This document shows, piece by piece, positions 14,286 through 61,179 of a stretch of DNA of 64,000 nucleotides. Positions within the stretch are counted from its first letter, which is position 1. The number at the start of each line of letters is the position of its first letter. This stretch comes from a virus, in IMG/VR virus record IMGVR_UViG_3300019487_000023, positions 8,850 through 72,849 of that record; one strand, 5' to 3'. The position numbers were made by a program, and so were the translations under genes. The notes under the pieces were generated by a model that saw only the letters and a list, made by a program, of their open reading frames with translations, had not been told where the DNA came from and made no database searches.

Positions 14286-14852
14286 ATGGCTTCTAAACTG
14301 CCATCGTTTGTCACAGGTGCAAACGCTAAAATCAAAGTCGGAGGCAAGACGTTCGCGTATGCTTCTGATGTCTCGTACAACGTTGTTGTGGACGTGGTAC
14401 CAATCGAAACAATGGGTCGTTACGAAGCAGTCACCAATGAGCCAGTTAACTATTCAGTTAGCGGCGAGTTGAGTGTCGTTCGTTACACCGGCATTGCTAA
14501 GACCAACAACATGCCAGGAACTAACACTGGTGGTAACGGTCTTGGTAAGGTTGACATGGGCACTGTGGGCGGCATCGGTTCGCATCACATTAACCCAGGC
14601 AATATGCTGTTGTCTCAGACTTGGGATCTTGCTGTATTCCAGAAGACTCAAACTGCTGCAACTGCTGCTGGAGATACCGCAGTCACCGTTGATGCTGTTG
14701 AATTCATCACCATCAAGGACTGCCGTTTCACTCGCAAGAGTGCAGGTATTAACAAGCGTGGTATCCTCGTTGATCGCCTAAGCTTTGTTGGTATTCTTGC
14801 AGACGATGAGTCGTTCGACGCTTCGTACTCTGGCGATACGGATCTGACCTAA
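14286..14852 (+). CDS. Tail tube protein, paralog 1
   Basis: FVTGANAKIKVGG..FAYASDVSY motif; follows the sheath; AAGGAG SD. Confidence 0.85.
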   Translation: MASKLPSFVTGANAKIKVGGKTFAYASDVSYNVVVDVVPIETMGRYEAVTNEPVNYSVSGELSVVRYTGIAKTNNMPGTNTGGNGLGKVDMGTVGGIGSHHINPGNMLLSQTWDLAVFQKTQTAATAAGDTAVTVDAVEFITIKDCRFTRKSAGINKRGILVDRLSFVGILADDESFDASYSGDTDLT

Positions 14853-15937
14853 ACTGTTCGTAAAAAAGCAAGAACCTCGCTAGATGTGCCACTGAACACG
14901 GCTCCTTTAGCGAGGTTCTTCATTCTCTTAATTCTTTGCCTTACTGAATTAGTAATTTGCCCGCCTCGGGCCATCAACCTTGTGCTAATCGTCAACTCAT
15001 CTTCAACAATAACAATTAATTTAATGTCGAATATATCTTTATTTCTTTTTATAAACGAGGAGACGTGCGTGGTGGGGTCATAGATCACAGTGGATGTTTC
15101 GTTCCAAAGTATAGACCTTGTTTGATCTTTAGGTGTTTTATCGTACGAAACATATTTAAATTTATTAATTACTTGATTGCAAATCCAACTCTTTCCAGCT
15201 CCAGACGCACCTGCAATAACATAAACAATCTTCTTTGTTCCTACTGATCTATTGGCTAAAAAATTTTCCATTTGGTCTTTAGTGTTAGGTTTTTCTTTAC
15301 CATTGCCATGTATTGCGTGAAACAATCTGTGACACGGTATACAAAGCGACACTAGATTGTCTATATTGAATCTTTCGGTCGGATGATGCTTCCAAGATTT
15401 TACGTGATGTGCATTTAATGTAACCCCACTGATTGAGCAAGCAACGCAAGTAAAGTTATCGACCTTAAATCTTTCAACATGTAATTTTAAATCTGCAAAC
15501 CTATTGCGCTCTGCTCTTGCAGCCGGTGTTTTAAGTTCGTCAAAATCTGATAACTTAATGCCTCTCAGAGTGCAACTAATTTTTACTTTTTGATCAAAAG
15601 TTAACTTCTTGCCTTTATTAGTCGGTGATCTGCCGCGCTTTACAGCGCTCATTTTATCAATAACTTCTCGCCTAGTCTCCTTCTTTCCTTTATTCCACGG
15701 CACATGATTAACCTTTGCAAGACTCATTTTTAACTTAGATTCTGTAGTGTGCCTAATACAGCATTTAGTGCAGTTTGGTTTAGAAGCGTTAACTTTATTG
15801 AGATATCCTCGATCTTTGCCGCACGTATCGCAGGTGGCCCTATATTTTGTTCTATAGTGTGCGCTGTCAATAGGTTCTTTTATGGTATCATTTAAGTTAA
15901 TCATAATTATTATGATTATACCTTGTATCAGGAACAA
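14849..15937 (-). CDS. HNH endonuclease with NUMOD-like basic repeats, fused to a C-terminal P-loop domain; TAG stop
   Basis: CVAC...HHVKSW...DNLVSLCIPCHRLFH (HNH); PWNKG motif; VIAGASGAGKS (Walker A); AT-rich, antisense insertion. Confidence 0.85.
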   Translation of the reverse strand: MFLIQGIIIIIMINLNDTIKEPIDSAHYRTKYRATCDTCGKDRGYLNKVNASKPNCTKCCIRHTTESKLKMSLAKVNHVPWNKGKKETRREVIDKMSAVKRGRSPTNKGKKLTFDQKVKISCTLRGIKLSDFDELKTPAARAERNRFADLKLHVERFKVDNFTCVACSISGVTLNAHHVKSWKHHPTERFNIDNLVSLCIPCHRLFHAIHGNGKEKPNTKDQMENFLANRSVGTKKIVYVIAGASGAGKSWICNQVINKFKYVSYDKTPKDQTRSILWNETSTVIYDPTTHVSSFIKRNKDIFDIKLIVIVEDELTISTRLMARGGQITNSVRQRIKRMKNLAKGAVFSGTSSEVLAFLRTV

Positions 15938-24287: not shown

Positions 24288-24311
24288 TTTAAGTTAAGAT
24301 ATAATGAACTT

Positions 24312-25277
24312 ATGAGTTTTACGTCACTTTTAGACAGATTTAGCAAGCCAGCGCAAGCGGCTACACAACCTGGTCCGGTGTTGAGCGAAGATATCGACAA
24401 CCTTACGGAGCAGAACTCTAACTTTTTCTATAAGACCGACCCAAAGAATTGGTACTCTGCAAGGCCATATGGCTTCAAGATGAACATGAGGGATGGCAAA
24501 CGTACCTTCATCTTCTTCTTGCCTATCAACCCAAGCAATATTGTAACGACCACGCATTTTGCGACAAATATGGTCTCTACACTGTATGGTACTGTTGAAG
24601 AACACTCTGACATCAGGTACTTTGATATCGAAATCAGAGGAAGCACAGGCTTCGTGCCAATGTACACGCGTCATGCTTCTGGCACTACTCCTGCTGTTGC
24701 CGCAGAGCTCATTAAGAAAGATTTTGGAACTCCAGGAAGAGCTTCGTATTCCGCTCTTACTAAGGTTCCACTCGGTGGATTCTTCGCTAAGACAGTTGGT
24801 GCGATTAACCAGATCAAGAATAAAGCCGCTGACTTGTTAGATGGTGGTCCAAAACCAGAAACAGGCGTCTACACAGAGCAAACTGGTTACTTTGCCTTCC
24901 ATAACCTATATAAGTTCCTCATGCGTCACAAGAAAGATGCCTCTGGTGCTGACGGTGGCGTTGGCGAGCGCTCTAAGCATCCGTTGACATTCTTTAACTA
25001 CAAAGACAATCAACAATATGACGTAGTTGTCCGAAACTTTACGCTGACTCGTAGTGCCGAAAATCCGATGATCTATAACTACGCTATCAGCTTGCGTGGA
25101 TATAACCTAAGAGGCCTAGATGACAAGATAAGCGATGATTTAACACAGCGTCTTAAGGATCTAGGGCTTAATGGGGTTGATACTTCATCTCTATTGGGCG
25201 ACATTAAAGATATTTCTAGTTCAGCAAAGGCTATCATTGGATCGGCAGTAGCTGGCATTAACGTATTGGGTAGATAA
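24312..25277 (+). CDS. Probable baseplate/tube-initiator protein (321 aa)
   Basis: FFLPINPSNI and NFTLTRSAENPMIYNYAISL motifs; position. Confidence 0.6.
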   Translation: MSFTSLLDRFSKPAQAATQPGPVLSEDIDNLTEQNSNFFYKTDPKNWYSARPYGFKMNMRDGKRTFIFFLPINPSNIVTTTHFATNMVSTLYGTVEEHSDIRYFDIEIRGSTGFVPMYTRHASGTTPAVAAELIKKDFGTPGRASYSALTKVPLGGFFAKTVGAINQIKNKAADLLDGGPKPETGVYTEQTGYFAFHNLYKFLMRHKKDASGADGGVGERSKHPLTFFNYKDNQQYDVVVRNFTLTRSAENPMIYNYAISLRGYNLRGLDDKISDDLTQRLKDLGLNGVDTSSLLGDIKDISSSAKAIIGSAVAGINVLGR

Positions 25278-26872: not shown

Positions 26873-26890
26873 GTAAGTACAATCAACTTT

Positions 26891-27397
26891 ATGCGATATT
26901 GCTTAGAGTGTAATAGTTCCATAAATCATAAATATAAGTTGGCTAAGTTTTGTACTGTTAAATGCAAAAATCATTACTGGCAAATCAACAATTGGACAAA
27001 GGTTTTGGCAACCGCTAAAAGATATCGTCAATCACATAAACGCTCAGAATTAGCGAAAAATCAAATAAAAGAGTGGCACCGCATCAATAAAGACAAGGTT
27101 GTACAACTTAATAAGGCTTACCATCAACGAATGAAAGGCAATATTGAGTATTTGGCCAAAAGAAGGCACCATGAAGCTCTCCGACGAGCCCGTAAATTAC
27201 AGGCCACACCTAAATGGCTCTCTAAAGAACAAATACAAACTATTAAAGATATTTATTTTAAGTGCCCTATTGGATATCATGTAGATCACATTGTTCCCTT
27301 AAGTAGTAAAGAAGTTAATGGACTACACGTGCCTTGGAATCTTCAGTACTTACCTGGTATAGTTAATAAGATAAAGTCTAATAAGGCGAACATTTGA
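26891..27397 (+). CDS. HNH homing endonuclease
   Basis: RARKLQATPKWL...YHVDHIVPLSSKEVNGLHVPWNLQYL; AT-rich. Confidence 0.88.
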   Translation: MRYCLECNSSINHKYKLAKFCTVKCKNHYWQINNWTKVLATAKRYRQSHKRSELAKNQIKEWHRINKDKVVQLNKAYHQRMKGNIEYLAKRRHHEALRRARKLQATPKWLSKEQIQTIKDIYFKCPIGYHVDHIVPLSSKEVNGLHVPWNLQYLPGIVNKIKSNKANI

Positions 27398-30300
27398 TGT
27401 CTATTGAAATTAGATCATTTAACCAAATCCTTGGTGACATGATTAGAAAAATAATTAGCGAAACCCCTTTGAACGACCTAAATGCTGGGTCTGTTCTCCT
27501 ATCGCTTTTGGAAGCTTGCGCATCTAATGACTTCGAAAATAACACTGCAATCCTTAACGTTCTTGAGCTTCTAAATATTGATGCCGTTAAGAATAATGAC
27601 CTAGATAGTAGAGCTGGCGATTATGGCTTGAGCCGTAATGCTGCAATTAAGGCGTCCGGTCAGGTAAGCATTCTAAACACTAACATCGTCAAGCGTAGTA
27701 CTGGTTTGTATGTTATTAAGCCAGCACCTATTCAAGGTCAAACTACAATTTATGTGAACAACACAACTGGTTGGGCTCCAACCGGCGCATTGTTCATCGG
27801 TCGCGATACTGAATCTTTCGAAGGTCCAATCAACTACACTGCGATCACTCAGTTTCCTACTTACTCTGCAATTACACTTGCGTCCGCTCTTCAGAAGGAT
27901 CACTTGATCTCTGATACTGTTATTGACTCTCAAGGTCAACCAGATCGCGTCATTGCCGCTGGCACTGTTGTTAAGATTCCTGCCAACAATCAGAACCCAG
28001 AAATTAACTACACTACACTTCGTGACGCTGTCATCCCTTCCGGTGAAGATCGCGTAGATGGCGTAGACGTCATTGCGGTGCTTCCTGGTTCTCAGGGCAA
28101 TGCGATGATCAACACGATCACCCAATTTAACACCCTTCCTTTCAGCGGCGCAGCAGTCACAAACACCTCTGCCTTCTCAAACGGTCGCGATGTTGAAACC
28201 GATACTGAGCTTCGCAACAGGATTAAGTCTTATTCGATCACTCTTGCTCGCGGTACTGCCCCAGCGATCCTCTCTGCTGTTATCGGCGTCTCTGACCCAG
28301 ATGAATCTAAGCAGGTAGCCTCTGCAGTTCTCACCGAACCTGTTAAGGTCGGTGACCCATCGATCATGTACATTGACGATGGTAGCGGATTTGAACCTTC
28401 TCAGGCTGGTCAATCCGTTGACTTGATGTTGCCATTTGCTTCTGGAACTGAAGAGTTCTTGCAGCTTGCTAACTACCCAGTTCCACGTCCACAGGTTGTT
28501 AACGTAGTAGAAGGTCCTTTCACTCTTACCGACGGCATGTACCTACGTGTTGTTGTTGACGGCAATGAAGAGACTGTCTTCTTTCAAACCTCTGACTTCT
28601 TGAACATTGCCGCTGCTACTGTAGCTGAAGTAATTGTAGCAATTAACACTCGTTCAACTCTATTTAAAGTTCGTTTCACTGACAACAGCCAACACATGCT
28701 CATGTATCCTGTTGCCTCTGATGCTGAGATTATCCAAGTTTCTCCTCTAAGAAGCTCTGATAATCCTCTCTTCTATGTGAACACAATTTTGAAGTTCCCA
28801 ACAAACGAATTCTCTTACATCTCGCTATATCAAAATAGCACTCGTTTGAAAGAGAAGCCAAAGAATGCATCGTTGGAGACTTCTCCGTTTGCATCTTGGA
28901 ACGTCACCGTTGCAAGCAATATCATCATCGCTGTAGACAATACTCCTGCTCAGGATCGCCCTTTCGCTATTACTGATTTCCCAGGAGCATCATCGTTTGC
29001 AGCTCTAAGTCTTGACGACTGGGTGACTGCATTCAATCAGAAGTTTGCTGGTCTTACCGCTACTGCCACCCCAAGTCAGACGATGAAGATTACCTCCAAC
29101 AAGGTTGGAACCGAATCTGCTATCAATGTCACTGGCGGTTCGCTACTCAATAAGTGGTTCCCTAACCTTCCATTGACCTCTGTAGGTCAAACTGCTCAGT
29201 TCGAATTGAACAGACAGACTGGTAACCTACGTATCCTAAGTGATATCCTCCCAGGAGATGCAATCTCCGCTGGTGTTGAGGACGCAAAGGGTTTCTCTAT
29301 CTCTAGCGAAACTACCTCTGGCACATACAACGTCTCGAATGATGGCTTCGGTCGTCCTGCTGAGATGGTTGTTGTTGTGGATTCGACATATTGCGATCAA
29401 CGTGCAGTACCACTCTTGATTGGTTCAACAATCACTATCTCTGACGAAGGCAGCAGCGTAATGCGCATCTTGTCTTCTGCTCCAGATACCTTCACCGGTC
29501 TATTGCCTGGTGACTTCATCTACATGGTCTCAAGAACCTCAGGATGGTTGTCTGCTGGTAACACTGGTTTATATAAGATTATTCGCAAGGGTCCTCACCT
29601 AACTGCAAACGTAGATACCTATGTTGAAGTTTTGAATGACTCGATCGTTGCTCCAGAAACAGTATCTGTTGCTGACTCTCAAGACATTAAAGCATTTACC
29701 ACTGATGTCTATCCTCAAATCTGGAGAGGTTCATACGTTACAAACCCACCAGCAGAACCGCTATCTGGTATCGTCACATCTTTGAATCGTGACCTTGCAG
29801 GCGTTAAGGCATCAGTCTTTAAATCTAAAGCTATTAAACTTACTTCTGCAACTGAAACTAACGGCAGCATTGCTATCCCAGTTTCTATCGGTCTTGCAAG
29901 TGTATTATTCGCAGAAACAACTTCTGCTCAACTTGGAAACCCAAGTCACATCGCGCACAGAATCTCTGACAAGAGCTTGTTGGCATTCTTCCGCAGGACA
30001 GTGCCAACTGCTACAAACGTATTCCTAGGTCGCCATACTTATGTTGACGTCAAGGGCCCATTACTATCTAACGGTACTCGCGATGTTCCTCCGTTCTCTG
30101 CAACCTACTCTGATCAGGTTGAAGTGGGCAGCACGATTGCCAATCAATTGAGTTACGATGACATCCTATCGTTAACGCATGGAAATAATAAGGATCAGTT
30201 TAGAAGCATTAAGGCTATCATCACCGGCGACACCATTGGAACACAGCAAGGCGTTGCTCGTACTGAATTCGACCACATTGCTGGCGATCAGTTCGAGATC

Positions 30301-33300
30301 ATGCGTCCATTGCAGTTCTCTACCGATGACAGTATGGTTGTTGTCATGGATGGACAACCAACTACTAAGACTGTCGATATTAAGTTATCTCGTATTGGTT
30401 TGATTAACTCTGGTTCTGGCGGTGGAACATTCATTCCAACCACAACTGAATTCTCTGCTAATGACTACGACAATGAGCCAGGTATTGACTTCAGTAATGT
30501 GACTGTTTGGGGAACCACTGTCAACAATACTGACTTCAGTGACTATGCAGTTTGGATGCGTTCACGCAACTGGTACTCAACTGACGGCGTAGCAGGAATC
30601 GCGGGCAAGATGATTGTTCGTGCAGTTCAGTATGGTCCAAACGGCGACAAGCTTCGCTTTGCAATCATTCATCCTCAGACTCCAAACCAGAGTCCAACGA
30701 CCACGTTCATCAACACTCCTTCTTACAGTACGATTTCATACGTGTTCGGATCTGGAGCTGCTCGCCCAATTGCTCTAACAGCCGGCGACACGATGGCAGT
30801 CGATGGTCCATATCCTGATGACTCTACAAATTTCCCAGCAGGTGCTTCAAGCACTGGTGAATACTATGACTACACCTTCTCTGCTGGTAACTTTGCGCCA
30901 GTAGTTGTTGGCGATGTTATCAGTATTGCAACAATCTCAGGAATTAGCTCTGGTAACAGAGGTCAATTCAGGGTCGCAAACGTAAGTGGTAATACAGTTC
31001 GTGTGTTCAACCCTAATGGATCAACAACTCTTGCTCCAGTGGCCGAATCTACGCCTATCACCGTTACAGGTGAAACCCTTGGTTCCCAGACTGCCTACAA
31101 CGTAACCACTGTTGCAGACGTCGCTGGATCATTGCATCAAACTTACTTCATCATCTACGATACCGCCGGCTCTGTGGCTGTTTGGTTTGACGTTGGAAAC
31201 GTTAATCCAGTGCCACCAGCTCACGGTGCTGCTCGTGCTATTCGCGTCGCTACAATCATTGCTAACGACTCTGCAAACACTGTTGCAAGCAAGATCCAAA
31301 CGTACTTGAACAACGATCCTGCATTTACTGCGTCAGTGGGCGGCAACACTGTCACGATCACTAATAAGCAAGAAGGCATCACTGGCGCTTCTTCTGCAGG
31401 TACTTCTGGTTTCGTCACTGCAGACATCTTCGGCACAAATCCTGTTACACTTGCAGGAAAGTACTTCATCATTTATGATGACAATGGCTCTGTGGCTGTT
31501 TGGTTTGATCCAGGCAGCGAAGGCAACCCTGAACCTTTCCACGGCGCTCAGCGTTCTATTAAGGTTGATGGATATGCTCCAGGCTCTAACGCCAATACTG
31601 TGGCTTCTGCAGTAGTTGCTGCTGTTAATCCAGATACTAAATTCAATGCTTCTGCTCTTGGCGCTGTTGTCACTGTTGTAAATAGCTTCTTCGGAAATGT
31701 CCCAGATGCAACCCCAGGTAACTCTAGTTTCACAATCGGTGTTATTACACCTGGTTCACTAGGAAGCGCAGAGTTGATCACCAATGCTGGTGGCATCAAC
31801 CTATTCCCACTCACTGGTACTGATGTCACAACCATCACTGCAACCATTAACGACAGCGATGTTCTAGTAGCTGCTGCCGTTGGCAACCCAGCTCTGTTAA
31901 TTGAAAAAGCCACAGTAGAAGAAGACTATGCTTATAGCGGTAACTCTAGTGCACTTGGATACGGACACAATCCTACAGATCCTGCCCTAAGGTCGTTCAT
32001 TGGCTTGTATGATGGTGTCAACTGGGTGAAGACATTCCAGAATGCAAACCCAAATTTCACGATGAAGACTGCCTTCATCTTGAACAACGTTGCTCCTTCT
32101 GTTTATCAGATGGATACTACACCAAATCCAAACACTGCGGATCTTGGTGAATTCTTCAAGTTGATCCCAACCACTGTTAAGAATTTCCATCATCACTTGA
32201 CTCAGAAGGCTCTATCGCAGCTTCCGATCGTCTCTGACATTGACATCTCTAATAACAGGAGAAACGTGCAGATCAAGTCTAAGCAACTTGGTTCTAACGG
32301 CGTTGTTGAAATCATCGGTGGACAAGCTAACAAGGCTAAAGCCTACATCTTAAGTGAATCTGAAGTTGCCAATGACAGCAGCGGAAATTATCTACAAGTA
32401 AGTGTTCCTGCGTTCCCAGATACTTTCAACTCTGGCGACGTTATTAAGATTGAAAACGACGCAGGCGTTAAGCGCTTCTCTCGTTTGATTAGCTCGGACA
32501 CAATCGACGTTACAAACCCTTCTGCTGGTATCATCGAATACAACTATAATCCTAAGAGCATCAACGTAAACTCTGGCACATTGATCACAATCACTGATGT
32601 TTCTGGTACATATGGTCGCCCAGCAGGATATGTGTGGCGTTGGACCCACAATGGTGGCGGTCCATCGTTAGCTCAAGTTCGCACAGGCGATCTACTAGCG
32701 TTCACTGGAACCCCATCGGGATGGGATCAGGGTAACAAGGCACGTATCGGTGGCGACGGTAGAGTGAGCGGTCTAACAATTGTTGCTGTCAACGACGGTG
32801 CAAACTGGGTGGATGTCATCAACCCATATGGTCGTGCAATGAGTTCCACTGCTATTAGCACGGGATCTCTTCAGATCTTCCCAACACCTATTAACAAATG
32901 GAACCTAAATCACGCTGCTCGTGCTAAGGTCTCATCGATGTCTCGTGTAACAAATGTTATTACAATCACCACGTTTGGCGCGCATATGCTAAATACCGGT
33001 GACAGTATTGATGTGATTGACTCTGATAACCTAATAGACGGCATTTACGGACCAGTGACGGTCTTGAATGCAAGTCAGTTCACGTTCGCTAGCGTTGGTT
33101 CAAACTTTAGCGAAGGCGCAGTTAATGCTTCGATCCTAAATATCGGAAACACTCAGACTCGTTACAAGATCGAGAAGCTTGGATTCAACAGTCTCACTCG
33201 CATTAGCAGAGTAGATGGCCAAAGTCCAAGGTTCTTGGATTGCGGTGTTGCCGTTGATGACTATTTCATCATCACAGGATCAACCTTTAAGTCTAATAAC

Positions 33301-34488
33301 AACGGTAGGTTCCGTGTCATCGCCGTTGACAATGACTCTGTCATTTACCTCAACGACACTGCTTCGGACGAGATGAACACGATTGTTCCTTTCAACAACA
33401 AAACCCTTGTTGCTGATTGGGTTTCTAACTCCCCAATTGTTACTGGCGTTGCTGGAACATTCAAGAACTTGAACGTTGGTGATTGGGTTAAGAAGGCTGA
33501 AGATCCTGAAACCTACTATCGTCAAATCCTATCGATGAACGCAGCTCCTGCATCTGCAACCTCTATCACTCTTGGTGGTAACTATGGTGGCAGTACTGCT
33601 TCTGCAGCTGGTGTTTTTTACGATCAATTGAATAATGCCGATGAAGGCGTTGTTCTGCAGGATATTGAGGATCTTCAAGTACTAGAAGGCGACGCATCGA
33701 CCGTTGGTGATTCACTATTCGTTCAAAACATCATCAACAGTAACTGGTTCAGTGTGAATAACATTGGAACATTTGGAGTTACCGAAGTTGGAACTAACCC
33801 AACTACACAGAAGCCATTCATCAGAATCAATAATTCTAATGGCGTAGCTGAAACCAATCGCTTGATGTCGATCAACCCAGCAGGCTTCTATCTAATTGAA
33901 GGTCTAACTTATAAGTTCTACTCTATTAGACAAGTTTCGCATATTGTCCTAGATGACCTAAATCAAGATCGTCGTTCGATCTATATTACTCCTTCGAACC
34001 GTTCTTATAAGTTCTCAAGTGCTAACACTACAAGTGTTTCACACATGGGTAAACTTGGGTACAATACTGACGTAACAACTGGTATCGACGGTTACTTGTA
34101 CTACACAGGCTTGCTACGCAGAGTACAACGCATCGTTGACGGATATGAGCCAGATGCTGACAACTTCCCAGGAAGAAGAGCTGTTGGTGGTGCTATCGAG
34201 ATCTTGCCTCCGCTTATTAAGCGTATCAACATCTCTATCAACGTTACAACCGATGAAGGTATTAACCTTGGTGACATCTCTAACATCATCAAGTCTGTCA
34301 TCATCCAATACGTTCAAGGTTTGGGCGTAGGTGAAGACGTCATCTTGTCAGAGATCATTGCTAACGTTATGCAGGTGAAGGGTGTTGCTGCTGTGACATT
34401 CACTAACCCAGTACCAAGCACTGAACGTATCGTCATCGCCGACAACGAGAAGGCTACAATCGTTCCTGAGAATATCGGAATCGCTTAA
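27397..34488 (+). CDS. Very large baseplate J-like wedge protein (2,363 aa)
   Basis: J-like N-terminus (LNAGSVLLSLLEA...GRDVETDTELRNRI) and C-terminus (GLGVGEDVILSEIIANVMQVKGV) around a large Ser/Thr/Gly beta insert. Confidence 0.85.
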   Translation: MSIEIRSFNQILGDMIRKIISETPLNDLNAGSVLLSLLEACASNDFENNTAILNVLELLNIDAVKNNDLDSRAGDYGLSRNAAIKASGQVSILNTNIVKRSTGLYVIKPAPIQGQTTIYVNNTTGWAPTGALFIGRDTESFEGPINYTAITQFPTYSAITLASALQKDHLISDTVIDSQGQPDRVIAAGTVVKIPANNQNPEINYTTLRDAVIPSGEDRVDGVDVIAVLPGSQGNAMINTITQFNTLPFSGAAVTNTSAFSNGRDVETDTELRNRIKSYSITLARGTAPAILSAVIGVSDPDESKQVASAVLTEPVKVGDPSIMYIDDGSGFEPSQAGQSVDLMLPFASGTEEFLQLANYPVPRPQVVNVVEGPFTLTDGMYLRVVVDGNEETVFFQTSDFLNIAAATVAEVIVAINTRSTLFKVRFTDNSQHMLMYPVASDAEIIQVSPLRSSDNPLFYVNTILKFPTNEFSYISLYQNSTRLKEKPKNASLETSPFASWNVTVASNIIIAVDNTPAQDRPFAITDFPGASSFAALSLDDWVTAFNQKFAGLTATATPSQTMKITSNKVGTESAINVTGGSLLNKWFPNLPLTSVGQTAQFELNRQTGNLRILSDILPGDAISAGVEDAKGFSISSETTSGTYNVSNDGFGRPAEMVVVVDSTYCDQRAVPLLIGSTITISDEGSSVMRILSSAPDTFTGLLPGDFIYMVSRTSGWLSAGNTGLYKIIRKGPHLTANVDTYVEVLNDSIVAPETVSVADSQDIKAFTTDVYPQIWRGSYVTNPPAEPLSGIVTSLNRDLAGVKASVFKSKAIKLTSATETNGSIAIPVSIGLASVLFAETTSAQLGNPSHIAHRISDKSLLAFFRRTVPTATNVFLGRHTYVDVKGPLLSNGTRDVPPFSATYSDQVEVGSTIANQLSYDDILSLTHGNNKDQFRSIKAIITGDTIGTQQGVARTEFDHIAGDQFEIMRPLQFSTDDSMVVVMDGQPTTKTVDIKLSRIGLINSGSGGGTFIPTTTEFSANDYDNEPGIDFSNVTVWGTTVNNTDFSDYAVWMRSRNWYSTDGVAGIAGKMIVRAVQYGPNGDKLRFAIIHPQTPNQSPTTTFINTPSYSTISYVFGSGAARPIALTAGDTMAVDGPYPDDSTNFPAGASSTGEYYDYTFSAGNFAPVVVGDVISIATISGISSGNRGQFRVANVSGNTVRVFNPNGSTTLAPVAESTPITVTGETLGSQTAYNVTTVADVAGSLHQTYFIIYDTAGSVAVWFDVGNVNPVPPAHGAARAIRVATIIANDSANTVASKIQTYLNNDPAFTASVGGNTVTITNKQEGITGASSAGTSGFVTADIFGTNPVTLAGKYFIIYDDNGSVAVWFDPGSEGNPEPFHGAQRSIKVDGYAPGSNANTVASAVVAAVNPDTKFNASALGAVVTVVNSFFGNVPDATPGNSSFTIGVITPGSLGSAELITNAGGINLFPLTGTDVTTITATINDSDVLVAAAVGNPALLIEKATVEEDYAYSGNSSALGYGHNPTDPALRSFIGLYDGVNWVKTFQNANPNFTMKTAFILNNVAPSVYQMDTTPNPNTADLGEFFKLIPTTVKNFHHHLTQKALSQLPIVSDIDISNNRRNVQIKSKQLGSNGVVEIIGGQANKAKAYILSESEVANDSSGNYLQVSVPAFPDTFNSGDVIKIENDAGVKRFSRLISSDTIDVTNPSAGIIEYNYNPKSINVNSGTLITITDVSGTYGRPAGYVWRWTHNGGGPSLAQVRTGDLLAFTGTPSGWDQGNKARIGGDGRVSGLTIVAVNDGANWVDVINPYGRAMSSTAISTGSLQIFPTPINKWNLNHAARAKVSSMSRVTNVITITTFGAHMLNTGDSIDVIDSDNLIDGIYGPVTVLNASQFTFASVGSNFSEGAVNASILNIGNTQTRYKIEKLGFNSLTRISRVDGQSPRFLDCGVAVDDYFIITGSTFKSNNNGRFRVIAVDNDSVIYLNDTASDEMNTIVPFNNKTLVADWVSNSPIVTGVAGTFKNLNVGDWVKKAEDPETYYRQILSMNAAPASATSITLGGNYGGSTASAAGVFYDQLNNADEGVVLQDIEDLQVLEGDASTVGDSLFVQNIINSNWFSVNNIGTFGVTEVGTNPTTQKPFIRINNSNGVAETNRLMSINPAGFYLIEGLTYKFYSIRQVSHIVLDDLNQDRRSIYITPSNRSYKFSSANTTSVSHMGKLGYNTDVTTGIDGYLYYTGLLRRVQRIVDGYEPDADNFPGRRAVGGAIEILPPLIKRINISINVTTDEGINLGDISNIIKSVIIQYVQGLGVGEDVILSEIIANVMQVKGVAAVTFTNPVPSTERIVIADNEKATIVPENIGIA

Positions 34489-43072: not shown

Positions 43073-43096
43073 GCCCAGATCGGATAAAATAGAGTT

Positions 43097-43837
43097 ATGG
43101 GACAAAAGCTTTACACAGATAGGATTGGCGCACTGAGCTTCAGCACTCCAAACGTGCTGCTGGCTGCGTCTATTCTGACTATCGGAGGTCAGCAATACGT
43201 GACTTCCGCGTTGTCGGTATCCGTACCGGTCATGACCGCCAACACGCTCTACATGGTCTACGCCGTACAAACCGCCGGCGTCGTGTCCTTGGTCATTTCT
43301 GTCAACGTCAACTCTGTGGGACCTACGGGATACTCCTCGTGGAAGCTGGTGGGCGCGTTTTATACGGATGGCACTGTATCGCCCACGTTGGGTACTTTCG
43401 TAACGATCGATGGAGTTCCTACCGCTCAAACTCCAGTCACTGTAACTTTGACCGTTTCGAATATCCCGCTCACTTCCCAATCCTTCAAGATGCGTCGGGT
43501 TGGAGACAAGGCTTGGATCGAAGGGTATTGCGTAGCTTCAGGTGCTGCCACGGGTAACATTCAATTCGCGCTCCCGTTCGTTCCAGATACCTCTAAACTA
43601 GCCCGCTCGGATTTTCCTACCTTAGGCACCGCCAAGGGTAATGATGGCACCGGCGACCACACTGGTGTCGTATTCAACTTTGGTGGAACTGGAACGTGCG
43701 GAATGTCAGGTGATGATGGCGCATCGAACTGGAACCCGACAGTGCCATTCACTTGGGCCAATACCAGAATCCTTGAGATCTTTCTTCCAGGTGTTCCTAA
43801 TTCTGCGTGGACCAACACTCCACTGAAGGACCTGTAA
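43097..43837 (+). CDS. Fibre/receptor-binding protein (246 aa), paralog of 47111-47845
   Basis: Shared TANTLY, LVGAF, GDDGA..W..TVP and terminal TPLKDL. Confidence 0.7.
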   Translation: MGQKLYTDRIGALSFSTPNVLLAASILTIGGQQYVTSALSVSVPVMTANTLYMVYAVQTAGVVSLVISVNVNSVGPTGYSSWKLVGAFYTDGTVSPTLGTFVTIDGVPTAQTPVTVTLTVSNIPLTSQSFKMRRVGDKAWIEGYCVASGAATGNIQFALPFVPDTSKLARSDFPTLGTAKGNDGTGDHTGVVFNFGGTGTCGMSGDDGASNWNPTVPFTWANTRILEIFLPGVPNSAWTNTPLKDL

Positions 43838-52331: not shown

Positions 52332-52344
52332 TATAATGTGAGCT

Positions 52345-52881
52345 ATGCGTCAGCTTAGCTCTGAGGGTGTTAACCTAATTAAAAGTTTTGAAGGTCTATA
52401 CTTGACCGCCTATCTAGACATCGTAGGAGTGCCTACGATTGGATATGGATGCACTGAAGGCGTTACCAAGGCCGACGTGCAGAACAAGCGTACAATCACT
52501 CCCCAACAAGCAGAAGACATGCTCCGCACTGAATTAGACAAGTTCTGTGTTGGTGTAGAGAAGTACGTTAAAGTCCCCCTCAATGACAATCAGTTTGCTG
52601 CTTTAGTATCTTTTAGCTACAACCTAGGTTTAGGTTCCCTACAAAAGTCAACTCTACTTAAACTTCTTAACTCTGGCGACTATACTGGCGCTAGTAACGA
52701 ATTTGTTAAGTGGAATAAGGCTGGTGGGAAAGAGGTCAACGGTCTCACCCGTAGACGCAATGCTGAACGCGACCTATTTTTGAAATCTTCAGGTACAATA
52801 AAATCAAATAGTCTTCTTCCAGATGGTCCATCAGATGATGAGATTCGCAAGAAGCTGGAAGCAGCGGAAGGAAAGAAGTAA
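52345..52881 (+). CDS. Lysozyme/endolysin (GH24)
   Basis: LIKSFEGLYLTAYLDIVGVPTIGYG (E-8-D-5-T); NQFAALVSFSYNLG; KWNKAGGK...GLTRRRNAERDLF. Confidence 0.93.
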   Translation: MRQLSSEGVNLIKSFEGLYLTAYLDIVGVPTIGYGCTEGVTKADVQNKRTITPQQAEDMLRTELDKFCVGVEKYVKVPLNDNQFAALVSFSYNLGLGSLQKSTLLKLLNSGDYTGASNEFVKWNKAGGKEVNGLTRRRNAERDLFLKSSGTIKSNSLLPDGPSDDEIRKKLEAAEGKK

Positions 52882-52965: not shown

Positions 52966-53517
52966 ATGAAAGAACAAATCAAAAAGCTTAAGCTCGAACT
53001 CAAAGAGTTGGCTAAGCAGATCAAAGAAAAGAAATCTCAAAGAAAATCGTCTAGCTGTGGCTATGTATCTGGTCTACACGAAGCCCGTGTTGCATTCAGA
53101 CACAAACATGTTGCCTATTGTCTTGCGAGGGGCCGAACCCTTGAGCAAGTAGATAAGGGCGAACGTCTTAATATGGACCATGTCCAATGGTACATGGACT
53201 CCATGAAGCCAGAATCTAAGAAGAAACTATACGCTGTTGTTAGCGACAAGCTCACCCCATCTCAACAAGCAGTACAGGCCGGTCATGCTGTAGCGGAATT
53301 CTTGAAGAAGAACCCGCACACTCAGTGGGATAACGGCTACCTCATCTACCTCACCGAAGCACCAGGATTTGACGGGAACATGCGCGGTTATCGTTGGATG
53401 GTCGGTAGTCATCAATATGCAGAGTTCGTTGAACCTGACCTTGGGAATAAGATCACCGCGTACGCGTTGTTCGGTCCTGAGGCTGAAAGGATTCTTCAGC
53501 GTCACAAACTCCTTTAA
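52966..53517 (+). CDS. Two-domain protein: N-terminal RHxHxAY..RGR domain plus C-terminal peptidyl-tRNA hydrolase 2-like domain
   Basis: KLYAVVSDKLTPSQQAVQAGHAVAEF...FVEPDLGNKITAYAL matches the Pth2-family pattern. Confidence 0.65.
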   Translation: MKEQIKKLKLELKELAKQIKEKKSQRKSSSCGYVSGLHEARVAFRHKHVAYCLARGRTLEQVDKGERLNMDHVQWYMDSMKPESKKKLYAVVSDKLTPSQQAVQAGHAVAEFLKKNPHTQWDNGYLIYLTEAPGFDGNMRGYRWMVGSHQYAEFVEPDLGNKITAYALFGPEAERILQRHKLL

Positions 53518-53538
53518 TATTGATCTACCGGAGGTAAC

Positions 53539-53628
53539 ATGGAAGACAAAATCGATATCAAGAAAGATCTGGAGCTTATGACGAATACCAGGAGGCACTA
53601 TCCGATATTGAATAAGTATAATGATTGA
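53539..53628 (+). CDS. Micro-ORF (29 aa)
   Basis: GGAGGT SD; MEDKIDIKKDLELMTNTRRHYPILNKYND. Confidence 0.55.
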   Translation: MEDKIDIKKDLELMTNTRRHYPILNKYND

Positions 53629-53732
53629 TGTGCGGCATCTCGGATAGACGAGAGAACCGTTGGGATAGGATTAAAGAGTTACTAAACAATCCGAGGACGG
53701 TTCGAAACGAGCCCGCCAAAAATATCGGATAA
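53628..53732 (+). CDS. Micro-ORF (34 aa)
   Basis: TGATG coupling; TATAAT 5 nt upstream; MCGISDRRENRWDRIKELLNNPRTVRNEPAKNIG. Confidence 0.45.
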   Translation: MCGISDRRENRWDRIKELLNNPRTVRNEPAKNIG

Positions 53733-53789
53733 GGCCTTGATGACTCAGGTGATCCAGTGAGTATAGCTTAACCTCACCCGCACAACAAT

Positions 53790-53867
53790 GCTCCATTAGC
53801 TCAGTTGGTCTAGAGCGGCGATCTCTAAAATCGTGCGTCGTGGGTTCGAATCCCTCATGGAGCGCCA
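53790..53867 (+). tRNA. tRNA with CUA anticodon (amber suppressor type)
   Basis: Acceptor GCTCCAT/ATGGAGC, G73, encoded CCA; D-stem GCTC/GAGC with GG in the loop; anticodon stem GCGAT/ATCGT with loop CT-CTA-AA (CTA at 53825-53827); T-loop TTCGAAT with one T-T mismatch in the T-stem. Confidence 0.9.
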
Positions 53868-53872
53868 AATTT

Positions 53873-54310
53873 ATGAAACTCGTTAAAGCACTACAAGATG
53901 CCCATGCTGGAGAACTTGCCGCGTATTACGCATACCAAGGGCACTGGAAGTCTCTCAAAGACCCTGGGGAACGAGTTAAAGTGCAAGAAATCCAAGAAGA
54001 CGAACTAGAACACATCCTATTCCTGTCCCATTACCTTCACAAAATGGGATATCAATCCTCTCCATATAAAGATTTCATCTGGACTCGTATTGGCAAGGCA
54101 ATTGGTGCTCTTTGTCACATTACTGGTTGGTGGTTGCCGATGCGCATTGCTGGAATGATGGAAAGAATCGGCACTAAGAGTTATATCGAAATTTCAGTAA
54201 TAGCTCGTGCCGAAGGGCATCCAGTGCTAGCAAGAAAACTTCTCGCAATGGCTGAAGTTGAGAAAAAAAACACGAAGAGTACTTCAATACCGTTTCAAGT
54301 TAAGATATAA
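53873..54310 (+). CDS. Ferritin-like diiron protein (Coq7/DMQ-hydroxylase-like) with an apparent frameshift at A8 near the 3' end
   Basis: HAGELAAYYAYQGH; EDELEH; ME; the last ExxH appears only in another frame. The track start (GTG 53840) lies inside the tRNA. Confidence 0.75.
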   Translation: MKLVKALQDAHAGELAAYYAYQGHWKSLKDPGERVKVQEIQEDELEHILFLSHYLHKMGYQSSPYKDFIWTRIGKAIGALCHITGWWLPMRIAGMMERIGTKSYIEISVIARAEGHPVLARKLLAMAEVEKKNTKSTSIPFQVKI

Positions 54311-57946: not shown

Positions 57947-59661
57947 TTTACGAGAAGTCTAAAGCAAAAAGAATCATCGCAGATAAGAAGCTTATTAAGG
58001 GTATTGTTCATAAGACCATCGATGAGATGGCTACTGTAGTTGGTGCAACTCTTGGGCCCGGCGGTCGACCTGTCATTATTGAGCGAGACGGCTTGTCTCC
58101 TCTAATCACAAAAGACGGCGTTACGGTTGCTAAAAATCTTGGCGTTGATCAGGCTGAAGAGAATATCATTATTGAGGCTGCTAAGGAAATCTGTCTAAAT
58201 ACGGCTAAAGAGGCTGGTGACGGTACCACGACTGCTATCGTTCTTGCAAATGCAATCACGAAGCATGGTCTAGAGTTTCTAGAGAATAGTCCTAAATATA
58301 ATCCTCAGCGTATGGTGACTGAACTTCAGGAACTATATGACAAGGTCGTTATCCCATTTTTAAAGACACACGCTAAAGCTGTCAAGACCCGCGAAGAGCT
58401 CATTCATGTTGCTAAGATCTCTGCTAACGGTGATCAGAAGATCGCAGAGGCAGTTGTTGAAGCTGTTATGGCTGCAGGTGAAGACGGAACTGTTCTTCTT
58501 GAGGAAGCTCAAGGTTCTCAGTTGCGCGTCGAGACAATCGATGGGTATGTGGTAACTTCTGGCTTGAAAGATATCGGTCAGGTTGGACCTGCATTCATCA
58601 ACGATCGTGCCAATCAGCAAGCGAAGATGGACAACGGCTTGATCTTCCTATATGATGGTTCCATGAACGATCTTAAGGTTCCAGGCGTTATTCAGACTGC
58701 TGTCGAGAATACAGACCATTTCGGGAAACCGATCATTGTGTTGGCTCACGCCTTCTCTGATGTTGTTCTAGAGAGGTTTGCAAAGTCTACTAAAGGCGGT
58801 TACACTGTAGTTCCTGTTAAGACCCCAATGGCCGGCGTTGCAAATTCGCGCTCAATGTTCCTACAAGACATGGCAGCATATACCGGTGGGAAGGTTTATG
58901 ATCCAGGCAATATCGATCAGATGGTGAATGAAGACGAAGAGGAAGGATTCGGAGTATTTCAATCTGCAAAGGTTGGCATGTACGAGTGTTTCTTGAATTG
59001 CGTATCAGAAGCCGATCACATCGATGGTCGCGTTGCTGAGTTGAAGTCTTTGTTACTCGCAGCTCCTAGTGAATTTGATAAGATGCATATCAGGGCCGCA
59101 ATCGGTAAACTAACTGGCGGGATCTCCACCATTTGGGTTGGAGCAGCCTCTGAACTTGAAGCTCGCGAAAAGAAAGCTCGCGTTGAGGACGCTGTTGAGG
59201 CTGTTCGTTCTGCTATTGCGGAGGGAATTGTCCCTGGTGGTTGCGGTGTTCACCTTGTTCTATCAGATATGCTATTGCGTCACCCAGAAGCAAAACCTTC
59301 TTGGAGCATTATGGCTAAGGCCCTTCGTGCACCTTTCGAGATGCTACTTTCGAATTGTGGTGAAGATATTAATGATATTTGGGGGGCGCTAGATCAATAT
59401 GTGCTTGGAAAAGATGAGCCACCTAAGGTTATCTTTGATGCCAATCAGCACCTCATGGTTGATCCCATGGAAGTTGGCATTATCGAACCTGCGAAGGTTT
59501 GCCGTGTAAGTATCGGAAATGCGCTCTCTGTTGCATCCCTACTAATCACTGTCGGAGGTATCGTTGTTGTTCCTCGTGATGCTGGTCTTGAAAATCAGCT
59601 TGCAATGAGCAAGCAGGCTTTTAGGGACATGATGAGTGGTGGAGGTGTTGGTGCCGAATAA
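57943..59661 (+). CDS. groEL: Phage-encoded GroEL-like chaperonin (572 aa)
   Basis: TLGPGG; ITKDGVTVAK; AGDGTTTA; ISANGD; RVEDAVEAVRSAIAEGIVPGGC; IIEPAKV. Confidence 0.93.
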   Translation: MIYEKSKAKRIIADKKLIKGIVHKTIDEMATVVGATLGPGGRPVIIERDGLSPLITKDGVTVAKNLGVDQAEENIIIEAAKEICLNTAKEAGDGTTTAIVLANAITKHGLEFLENSPKYNPQRMVTELQELYDKVVIPFLKTHAKAVKTREELIHVAKISANGDQKIAEAVVEAVMAAGEDGTVLLEEAQGSQLRVETIDGYVVTSGLKDIGQVGPAFINDRANQQAKMDNGLIFLYDGSMNDLKVPGVIQTAVENTDHFGKPIIVLAHAFSDVVLERFAKSTKGGYTVVPVKTPMAGVANSRSMFLQDMAAYTGGKVYDPGNIDQMVNEDEEEGFGVFQSAKVGMYECFLNCVSEADHIDGRVAELKSLLLAAPSEFDKMHIRAAIGKLTGGISTIWVGAASELEAREKKARVEDAVEAVRSAIAEGIVPGGCGVHLVLSDMLLRHPEAKPSWSIMAKALRAPFEMLLSNCGEDINDIWGALDQYVLGKDEPPKVIFDANQHLMVDPMEVGIIEPAKVCRVSIGNALSVASLLITVGGIVVVPRDAGLENQLAMSKQAFRDMMSGGGVGAE

Positions 59662-60121
59662 GTATGCTGACTATAACAAGACGTGGAAAGAAAACAACAA
59701 AGACCGTGAATTGGATAATTGTAGGCGTTGGGCCAAAGAAAACTTAGAACATAGAAGACAATATAAAAGATTGTTGCACCAAAAACAGATGCAAGATCCA
59801 AATTATAGACTTAAAAGAATATTAAGAAATAGATTTTATAAAGTTATAAGTGGTCGCTCTAAGGTACAGTCAGTTTTATGTTATATAGGGTGCACTGTCG
59901 ATGAACTAAGGGTTCATCTAGAAAAACAATTCGTTGATGACATGTCATGGGACAATCATGGCAGCTATTGGCACGTAGACCATGTCGTGCCGCTAACGTT
60001 ATTTGATCATTCGAACCAAGATGAAACAGCCAAAGCGTGGCATTTTTCTAATTTACAGCCATTAAAAGCGTTAGATAATCTTCGTAAGGGCAGTAAGGTT
60101 TATTTATGTGGGATAAAGTAA
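59636..60121 (+). CDS. HNH homing endonuclease (same family as 18024 and 61176)
   Basis: IGCTVDELRVHLEKQFVDDMSWDNHGSYWHVDHVVPL...NLQPL. Confidence 0.85.
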   Translation: MVEVLVPNKYADYNKTWKENNKDRELDNCRRWAKENLEHRRQYKRLLHQKQMQDPNYRLKRILRNRFYKVISGRSKVQSVLCYIGCTVDELRVHLEKQFVDDMSWDNHGSYWHVDHVVPLTLFDHSNQDETAKAWHFSNLQPLKALDNLRKGSKVYLCGIK

Positions 60122-60816
60122 AAACCTTCGTTGAAGGAAGCAAGGTAGCACAATTCGTACTTGTACTCCTTTTGGGAGTAGCGATTGGGGCCATCTTTTA
60201 TCCCACAAAGCGCATTGAAGAACGTGAGAAGTCTCGTTACGAAGAGCAATTGAAAATTACGAAAGAAGCCAACGAGAAGGAAGTTAAGCAACTCAATGAG
60301 AGGCTTGATAAGTCAGTAGAAGAAACTAAACAAGTTAGACAAGAGTCTGAAACTAAAATCTCTAAGCTTACTACTCAGGTTCATGATTTACAATCTAAGC
60401 AGAAGACCTCTTACTACAAACTTGTAAAGCCCGATGGTACTGTTGAGATTAAGAAGTACTCTGAATCTGAAGTAACAGAGTCTACAAAGGTAATCACACA
60501 GATTCAAGAAGAGTTTAAGACAAAGATTGAATCTATTGAAACCAAATGGGAAACTCTACATAAGGAACGCGTTGAGACTCTTCAAAAGGAATGGTCTTCA
60601 AAAGAGCAAACCTATCAAACAAAGATTGCTGAGCTAGAGAAATCAAAGGTCACTGAGATCAATCAGAAGAAATTTGGACTAGAAGCTGGTTTGATGTCTA
60701 ACCTAAACTATTATGGTCACTTCAATGCTGATATCTTTGGTCCGATCTTTATCGGTGGTCAAGCAGAATTTGGTCCTGCACCAGCATTTGGATTGGGCCT
60801 CGGAATTCGATTCTAG
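60106..60816 (+). CDS. Membrane-anchored coiled-coil protein with four C-terminal beta-strands (spanin-like); TAG stop
   Basis: N-terminal TM VAQFVLVLLLGVAIGAIFY; long Glu/Lys coiled coil; C-terminus ...AFGLGLGIRF. Confidence 0.7.
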   Translation: MWDKVKTFVEGSKVAQFVLVLLLGVAIGAIFYPTKRIEEREKSRYEEQLKITKEANEKEVKQLNERLDKSVEETKQVRQESETKISKLTTQVHDLQSKQKTSYYKLVKPDGTVEIKKYSESEVTESTKVITQIQEEFKTKIESIETKWETLHKERVETLQKEWSSKEQTYQTKIAELEKSKVTEINQKKFGLEAGLMSNLNYYGHFNADIFGPIFIGGQAEFGPAPAFGLGLGIRF

Positions 60817-60828
60817 TATAATAGAGTC

Positions 60829-61179
60829 ATGCCTAAGTATAAATTCAAGTGTCCTGCCTGCAATGAAGAACGCGAGAAGTATACCTCTAAGGACATAGAG
60901 GAAGTACCTTGTCACAAATGCGAAGGGCAACCTATGTTTCGCCAATTGCCTACAATCACCGGCCAAGAAGTACGGGAAACTGTAGACCCTATCCTTAATA
61001 CTAAGTGGAAACAAGATCACAAGCAGATCATCAAGGATCGCCATGATGATCACTATTGGGAAGTCGAGGTTCCTCGTCTTGTCCAAAAGTACTCTGTCGA
61101 AACCTGTTTAGAGCAACAGTGGCTCATTTATAACGAAAAGGGCGAACTGGTCATCAATAAACCACCAAAAAAACGATGA
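60829..61179 (+). CDS. Zinc-ribbon protein (FmdB-like N-terminus)
   Basis: MPKYKFKCPAC...CHKC. Confidence 0.75.
   Translation: MPKYKFKCPACNEEREKYTSKDIEEVPCHKCEGQPMFRQLPTITGQEVRETVDPILNTKWKQDHKQIIKDRHDDHYWEVEVPRLVQKYSVETCLEQQWLIYNEKGELVINKPPKKR

Follow-up and report, generated by a model that had tools for sequence, protein, structure and literature searches.

An amber-reading tRNA kept beside a Pth2-like gene in a clade of standard-code phages, and its possible role outside stop-codon recoding

Suppressor tRNAs of phages are usually read as a tool for stop-codon recoding or as a prelude to it, and the presence of such a tRNA in a phage that uses the standard genetic code raises the question of what it does there. 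In our study this question was addressed for a DNA stretch of 64,000 nucleotides, hereafter the window, which covers positions 8,850 to 72,849 of the IMG/VR virus record IMGVR_UViG_3300019487_000023 and contains a tRNA gene with the anticodon CUA, reading UAG, at 53790-53867 of the plus strand. A preliminary description of the window had proposed an amber reader in a standard-code genome, and the tRNA was found to be genuine, with a UAG-reading anticodon, and to be neither an error nor an ordinary tRNA-Trp. We lean with moderate confidence towards a functional, selected amber-decoding tRNA of a Lys-like family, which forms a fixed two-gene module with a protein of predicted Pth2 fold and whose targets would lie outside the conserved genes of the phage.

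The gene has the form of a class I cloverleaf. It is the sole tRNA called by ARAGORN in the window, with the anticodon CTA at tRNA position 36, and the Rfam model RF00005 matched 53790-53864 over model positions 1-71/71 with 61.9 bits (gathering score 29, E 5.3e-11). Reading of the arms has shown an acceptor stem of 7 bp, an anticodon stem of 5 bp, a D-loop with GG, a variable loop of 5 nt, the T-loop TTCGAAT and the discriminator G73, and the T stem carries one U-U mismatch. The anticodon loop C32-U33-C34-U35-A36-A37-A38 lies at 53823-53829 (anticodon CUA, 53825-53827) and the 3' CCA is encoded in the genome at 53865-53867, so that the cloverleaf, the encoded CCA and the loop CU-CUA-AA given in the preliminary description were borne out by ARAGORN and by the Rfam match. 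The loop has 7 nt with U33 and a purine at position 37, as is expected of an amber suppressor. The label tRNA-Pyl, which ARAGORN prints for any CUA anticodon, is a naming convention. Hallmarks of tRNA-Pyl are a short D-loop without GG (G18G19), an anticodon stem of 6 bp and a variable loop of 3 nt; the tRNA at 53790-53867 has the CUA anticodon in common with it and none of these structural peculiarities. This identity was rejected, as D-loop, T-loop, anticodon stem and variable loop are all canonical in the sequence and in the ARAGORN drawing.

The source contig reads CTA, and a contig of a cave metagenome that was sequenced in another run and for another study has the tRNA without any difference; an ENA assembly carries the CUA tRNA too, the three assemblies of different runs being identical in this sequence. 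Occurrence of the same sequence in an independent cave-metagenome assembly shows that it is not a sequencing error. The concern that the reads might hold CCA, or an error, was thus settled at the level of the assembly consensus, which is CTA in all three assemblies, contigs being blind to minority variants. The source and second-run contigs differ at 11 positions just downstream of the tRNA.

Conservation of the locus was followed through relatives of the phage. A pattern scan with the anticodon arm, in which the anticodon was left free, returned one IMG/VR contig, a syntenic relative with CUA at the same place. A search with the 183-aa protein encoded upstream of the tRNA (52966-53517, plus strand), which is Pth2-like in its C-terminal half, gave 14 IMG/VR loci with 54-67% protein identity; these represent about 11 distinct phages, two of them complete (176 kb). 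In total, more than 400 homologs of the fusion protein are on record. A CUA tRNA stands downstream of the Pth2-like gene in 14/14 of these loci, and it was also present 8-240 nt downstream in 4/4 more divergent homologs from Logan assemblies (48-56% identity). The possibility left by the preliminary description, that relatives might carry CCA instead, therefore fell away with CUA in every relative examined. The gap between the two genes ranges from 8 to about 850 nt, the proteins shared with the relatives are only 26-80% identical, and the neighbourhood varies, with a lysozyme in some and a CHAP enzyme in others as the endolysin and with differing spacers and genes downstream. The gene order is helicase, endolysin, Pth2-like gene, tRNA, a variable stretch and dUTPase, in a block of replication and nucleotide metabolism. 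The complete relatives G002 and G005 hold 22 and 31 sense tRNAs in arrays that lie 83-106 kb from the CUA tRNA, and some genomes (G002, L035) have a second CUA tRNA in tandem. In a distant phage, a homolog with only the Pth2 part lies between tRNA-Lys(UUU) and tRNA-Lys(CUU). Since all 18 related contigs keep the CUA tRNA after the Pth2-like gene, a lasting job other than code rewriting is indicated.

The tRNA sequences themselves point in the same direction. In an alignment of nine CUA tRNAs, compensatory changes on both sides were found in 13/21 stem pairs and 94.2% of the stem cells were paired; none of 500 shuffles reached the observed covariation, and sliding of the 3' partners gave a pairing of 30-50%. 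Among the 22 distinct family members, on which the counts of loop, CCA and discriminator are based, the anticodon loop is YUCUAAM, that is (C/U)-U-CUA-A-(A/C), in 22/22, and CCA is encoded in 21/22. Compensatory stems together with an invariant loop mark a tRNA that has been functional for a long time and in which the anticodon is important. Hence, judged from these sequences, the CUA tRNA appears to be an old, selected lineage rather than a recent Trp mutant or a brief step to recoding.

The isotype of the tRNA body was explored by comparing 18 CUA tRNAs with 72 class-I sense tRNAs from the arrays of the relatives, from Xanthomonas phage XacN1 and from other loci, a pool which is small and phage-derived. 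Lys was the nearest isotype for 12 of the 18, Trp for 1 and Gln for 0, and Lys was nearest for 7/18 when the Lys genes recruited by BLAST were left out. The mean identity of the family was 0.60 to Lys and 0.54 to Trp. BLAST against GenBank phages returned mostly tRNA-Lys as the top annotated matches, the nearest sense tRNAs being Lys(CUU), and of the E. coli tRNAs one for Arg comes nearest (77%). An exact-pattern scan with the anticodon arm, any anticodon being allowed, gave no match in 185,579 bacterial and archaeal species genomes, and so no host donor tRNA was found. We regard the body as Lys-like with moderate confidence. The preliminary description had linked the tRNA to tRNA-Trp. The loop is indeed one base away from that of Trp; the derivation from Trp is not supported, because the Lys loop CU-CUU-AA is at the same distance (U36 to A), Trp is so rarely the nearest isotype, and G73 is variable. 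The discriminator of the family is G in 9 members, A in 8 and U in 4, so that G73 is no family trait. U35 is the main anticodon determinant for both LysRS and GlnRS of E. coli. Normanly et al. are said to have reported in 1990 that E. coli frequently charges tRNAs changed to a CUA anticodon with Gln or Lys. Our best guess for the inserted residue, by analogy, would be Lys or Gln.

The genome itself was found to be of standard code. The open reading frame (ORF) 27394-34488, of 2,364 codons, is uninterrupted and no gene of the window is split by TAG, as the preliminary description had stated. The greedy non-overlapping ORF coverage of the 108.7-kb record was 92.5% under code 11, and 93.6%, 93.2% and 89.3% when TAG, TGA or TAA, respectively, was read as sense; the gain with TAG is about the same as that with TGA, which means that there is no gain specific to TAG, and the three relatives used for comparison likewise showed none. 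The four genomes compared are this phage (G000, partial) and its relatives G001, G002 and G005. Among the 85 ORFs of the record with homologs in relatives, 58 end in TAA, 19 in TGA and 8 in TAG, which is of the same magnitude as the roughly 5 TAG stops in 75 ORFs counted earlier. In the four genomes TAG accounts for 8/85, 3/30, 15/115 and 14/108 of the stops of conserved ORFs, or 9-13%, without any depletion of TAG; their GC content, 40-49%, is not low, and the stops of the structural block are almost exclusively TAA.

All TAG-containing stop-to-stop frames of the four genomes were further screened for cross-genome homology spanning the TAG, and none of the conserved genes proved to contain a TAG in frame. 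The TAG-spanning matches obtained were antisense or out-of-frame shadows of real genes and hence no sign of recoding. Two apparent N-terminal cases in G002 were alignments that extended upstream of the genuine Met start into the 5' leader. For the available sequence, TAG recoding of the whole genome or of a part of it was therefore rejected, and the earlier view that the genome is not recoded was supported by the coverage under four codes as well as by the screen. No full-length release factor was detected in the four records, the RF-1 domain occurring only in a 125-aa GGQ protein of G002, and synthetases of the families PF00152 (class IIb, Lys/Asp/Asn-type) and PF00749 (Glu/Gln-type) are absent from them, an absence that counts for little in the partial G000. 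The GGQ protein (G002:153760-154137, equal to L021:13760-14137) is a GGQ-only RF-1 protein, ArfB-like with 53.4 bits, and lies inside the tRNA array; G005 has none, and the corresponding part of this phage falls outside the partial record. As to the TAG-terminated ORFs, 4/8 of the conserved ones in the record lie on the minority minus strand, and an ORF resembling HNH/NUMOD3 homing endonucleases (14849-15937, minus strand), antisense in the tail block, also has a TAG stop.

The invariant upstream partner of the tRNA is the 183-aa protein, which has a basic, helical N-terminal half of about 85 aa and an alpha/beta domain as its C-terminal half. Its AlphaFold model is of moderate quality (pLDDT 71.6). 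In the Foldseek search of the PDB, ranks 1-14 were all of Pth2 fold, namely 13 Pth2/Bit1 enzymes or archaeal homologs and Atu0240, with probabilities of 0.80-1.00 and TM-scores by target of 0.46-0.57. G005 encodes the two halves in separate ORFs, and the ORF for the C-terminal half hits PF01981 with 29.9 bits against a cutoff of 23 over positions 1-111/115. The product of 52966-53517 is predicted from this modeling to have the Pth2 fold in its C-terminal half and is a putative hydrolase. In this phage and the 14 IMG/VR loci the Pth2-like gene starts with MK(E/T)Q after a GGAG or related purine-rich Shine-Dalgarno-like motif (15/15), and none of the 15 genes has an in-frame TAG, at the start or elsewhere. 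As the gene lacks UAG, the tRNA is not needed for its translation, and the coupling of the two is not through suppressor-dependent translation of the hydrolase. The spacer between them (53518-53789, plus strand, 272 nt) showed no conservation outside the tRNA in the alignment with G001, the flanking DNA being unalignable, and the scan around the tRNA gave no consensus sigma-70 promoter and no terminator. G005 has a 142-aa gene in the position of the spacer; the small spacer ORFs were considered as remnants of it and dismissed, there being no similarity.

In the reading that we favour, the tRNA would be transcribed along with the neighbouring genes of the replication block and charged by a synthetase of the host, likeliest with Lys or Gln because CUA retains U35. 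During infection the charged tRNA would compete with RF1 for UAG codons and presumably decode them with some efficiency. As the conserved phage genes mostly have TAA stops and require no suppression, the relevant UAG would lie outside the conserved phage ORFs; the effect would then fall on mRNAs of the host or on the condition of the translation machinery, and the tRNA may act on amber-terminated genes of the host. The Pth2-like enzyme would most likely handle peptidyl- or acyl-tRNA species linked to the CUA tRNA.

Several observations weigh against this reading. The phage genomes bear no footprint of active amber suppression: with 9-13% TAG stops, and with in-frame extensions after TAG that are not shorter than others (median 11 codons, against 7-8 after TAA or TGA; Mann-Whitney p = 0.24), there is neither dependence on suppression nor any obvious adaptation to it. 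The stop that follows a TAG is often TAG again, and no selection for backup stops after TAG was seen among the conserved ORFs of the four genomes. Some second tandem copies and one ortholog have imperfect anticodon stems, and the locus was found in no RNA run. As for the partner, the 183-aa protein of the window has no Pfam PTH2 match (E<=1) and no match in the PDB by sequence either, and its catalytic residues are putative only, as a partial alignment with MJ0051 keeps the ...VVVRNDL...Q.GHA core with a shortened GKGK loop. Moreover, the adjacency of the tRNA and the Pth2-like gene could be mere inherited gene order within one clade.

Other explanations were weighed on the same evidence. An artefact, in which a sense tRNA (Trp CCA or Lys CUU) was altered by a sequencing or assembly error or a pseudo-tRNA is decaying, could draw on the T-stem mismatch and on the silence of contigs about minority variants, and its probability is negligible given the three identical assemblies, the CUA in 22/22 distinct homologs and the compensatory stems. 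An intermediate towards TAG reassignment would follow the model of Borges et al., in which the suppressor comes first and in-frame TAGs appear later in late and lysis genes. These authors found suppressor tRNAs acquired by standard-code relatives of recoded phages and read them as a step before recoding (10.1101/2021.08.26.457843); the almost pure TAA stops of the structural genes fit such a model as well, and recoded genes could lie in the missing part of the record. Against this, the tRNA sits at one locus in 18/18 relatives, the proteins of which retain only 26-80% identity, both complete relatives (176 kb) are of standard code throughout, and TAG is not depleted at a GC content of 40-49%. 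This conservation and normal use of TAG argue for a long-lived stable state and not a transient one, so that the early stage of reassignment suggested in the preliminary description is quite improbable here.

To the same low degree we credit a programmed readthrough of UAG-ended genes of the phage itself, giving C-terminally extended isoforms or acting on an amber-gated client. The best candidate was the 236-aa membrane and coiled-coil, spanin-like protein encoded at 60106-60816, whose TAG stop precedes by 12 nt an in-frame 116-aa Zn-ribbon ORF (60829-61179), so that readthrough would yield a fusion of 357 aa. Its orthologs in G001 and G005 end in TAA, the next gene in G001 overlaps it in a different frame, the product has a natural C-terminus (...GIRF), and the following ORF starts at the first position of the Zn-ribbon model. 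The fusion was rejected as a conserved feature, and the in-frame arrangement is most simply a coincidence. Further, in none of the ortholog groups is a TAG stop shared by all the genomes compared, the Pth2-like genes lack TAG as noted above, and no early-TAG gated ORF occurs near the tRNA, which together speak against the conditional readthrough device that had been proposed. A client among lineage-specific genes or in the missing part of about 70 kb is possible and nothing points to one. A function apart from general decoding, unlikely in our view and still the least improbable of these alternatives, would have the tRNA and the Pth2-like enzyme counter a defence that acts on tRNAs or on stop-paused ribosomes, the tRNA being a decoy or competitor, or would make the tRNA a regulatory or processing element. 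The invariant anticodon loop in genomes without a suppression footprint, the strict coupling to a protein of tRNA-hydrolase fold, the small ArfB-like GGQ protein of G002 and the G/A/U discriminator, a variation uncommon for a tRNA whose amino-acid identity has to be fixed, are consistent with it. On the other side, nothing that marks a tRNA active in translation has been lost (encoded CCA, T-loop, D-loop GG, U33 and A37 are all present), and no defence or anti-defence gene was identified nearby, the idea being purely inferential. A more speculative form, to which we give a slightly smaller chance, is that tRNA(CUA) and the Pth2-like protein, with the ArfB-like GGQ protein in G002, may constitute a host-directed termination toolkit. 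The tRNA at an A-site UAG would outcompete RF1 or defence toxins directed at stop codons, for instance RelE-type A-site mRNases, and the hydrolases would recycle peptidyl-tRNA and stalled complexes. Such a counter-defence or takeover role at termination is attractive as speculation and, if true, would give orphan phage suppressor tRNAs a host-directed or counter-defence function independent of recoding.

The record from which the window comes has 108,664 bp and 45.4% GC and originates from a cave metagenome. It is partial, with a CheckV completeness of 64%, the complete genomes of the myoviruses of this clade being of about 176 kb. A JGI contig of 99.7% identity runs 1.1 kb beyond its left end (L032:1-1104) with sequence that the record lacks, and the first base of the record corresponds to position 59,448 of the second-sample contig, which implies at least 59 kb more. 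An identical Pth2-like protein lies on a contig of 178,111 bp, and the right end of the record, with its terminal sequence read by eye, seems to lie inside a tail-fibre-like repeat gene. Because of this, the statement that 53790-53867 is the only tRNA is true of the 108.7-kb record and not necessarily of the genome. The phage is myovirus-like, with tail sheath, helicase, lysozyme, dUTPase, DNA methylase, a GroEL-like chaperonin and SbcC, and a baseplate-J domain is contained in the 2,364-aa protein of ORF 27394-34488. No near-identical phage or near relative was present among GenBank phages, and among cultured relatives Myxococcus phage Mx1 comes closest in its tail sheath (32%).

Various features around the locus were also observed. 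The gene directly after the tRNA (53873-54310) is ferritin-like, with generic COQ7/rubrerythrin/ferritin matches; it was considered as a tRNA hydroxylase of MiaE type and set aside, there being no MiaE signal, and it is absent from the relatives and altered in the strain variant. The segment 54205-55162, with the end of this gene and a 269-aa ORF, is replaced in the second cave sample and in the ENA assembly by 278 nt in the contig, the genes called there including a 136-aa Endonuclease VII, so that a cassette directly following the tRNA has been swapped between strains. A tRNA-Ser is found between the endolysin and the Pth2-like gene in G001 and G002, and the window has no gene there; L035:2815-2895, L036:2811-2894 and L038:2818-2897 are tRNA-like genes in this position whose anticodon loops look, by eye, oversized (about 9 nt) and A-rich, and which ARAGORN called 'Phe(aaa)' or a four-base 'taaa'. 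Second tandem CUA tRNA copies and one ortholog in relatives (L009:5092-5167, L035:3948-4022, L036:3948-4022 and L012:5043-5117) have two anticodon-stem mismatches or an irregular loop; ARAGORN gave 'ctaa' in one and a Phe miscall in another, and they are possibly decaying duplicates or non-standard decoders. In the replication block, a protein that is one ORF of 1,149-1,191 aa in G001 and G002 is split in the window at 66448-70594 into 756 aa ending in TAG (66448-68718), an overlapping 194 aa (68688-69272) and 454 aa (69230-70594), and the split resembles the insertion of a mobile element or an intron. In many genes a TATAAT-like hexamer lies 6-8 nt upstream of the ATG in place of a Shine-Dalgarno sequence (e.g. 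24300-24312, 26878-26891, 43085-43097, 52332-52345 and 64088-64102), and others have a clear GGAG.

A deep and stable lineage of amber tRNAs in phages that were never recoded weakens the account of such tRNAs as a transitional state, at least in this clade. The puzzle of orphan suppressors, as in XacN1, becomes a testable two-gene module, and cultured carriers of the tRNA family exist. With 22 distinct sequences and three discriminator types, the family further provides a natural supply of varied amber suppressors.

Among known systems, Xanthomonas phage XacN1, Pectobacterium phage CBB and Sinorhizobium phage Phosso have tRNAs of the same family and are cultured phages of standard code. In D-arm, anticodon loop and T-arm the copies of XacN1 agree with the window tRNA, and the CUA tRNAs of CBB and Phosso show 85% identity over about 58 nt by BLAST. 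XacN1 has two orphan CUA tRNAs in each terminal repeat, and in-silico readthrough of 18 amber stops gave no client (PMC5852040). In these three phages the CUA tRNA lies in or near large arrays, whereas here it lies away from arrays and is locked to the Pth2-like fusion gene throughout the clade. XacN1 ORF087 and the Phosso and CBB ORFs beside the CUA tRNAs were considered as Pth2 homologs and rejected, as no similarity was found. Suppressor tRNAs and peptidyl-tRNA hydrolases occur together in the genomes of XacN1 and of Atu_ph07, and our literature search found no paper tying the suppressor tRNAs of phages such as these to the hydrolases. The tandem CUA tRNAs of XacN1 (L048:36047-36205) are identical from D-arm to T-arm and differ in the acceptor stem and the discriminator (A vs G), as though the same body could be charged by two different routes; the tandem CUA pairs of G002 and L035 have the discriminators G and U.

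In phages with TAG recoded (code 15), such as crAss-like and Lak phages (Borges et al.; Peters et al., PMC9523058; Cook et al., PMC11210395), tRNA(CUA) is found as well, and suppressor tRNAs are present in 40-52% of TAG-recoded phages (10.1101/2021.08.26.457843; PMC11210395). As in the phage studied here, their tRNA(CUA) comes from a part of the genome with standard code, next to lysis or replication genes. In contrast to them, no in-frame TAG in a conserved gene, no full-length release factor and no synthetase of the PF00152 or PF00749 families was detected in our four genomes, and the assignment in code 15 was inferred to be Gln whereas the body here appears Lys-like. The E. coli suppressors su7/supU (from tRNA-Trp) and supE (from tRNA-Gln) and the synthetic tRNA-Lys(CUA) are likewise one anticodon base away from a sense tRNA. 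Unlike these, the window tRNA is apparently no recent point mutant and belongs to an old lineage with covarying stems of its own. Suppressor tRNAs of phages, including orphans in phages of standard code, are thus known; the new element is a stable, clade-wide module of a Pth2-like gene and tRNA(CUA) in which the hydrolase gene itself contains no UAG.

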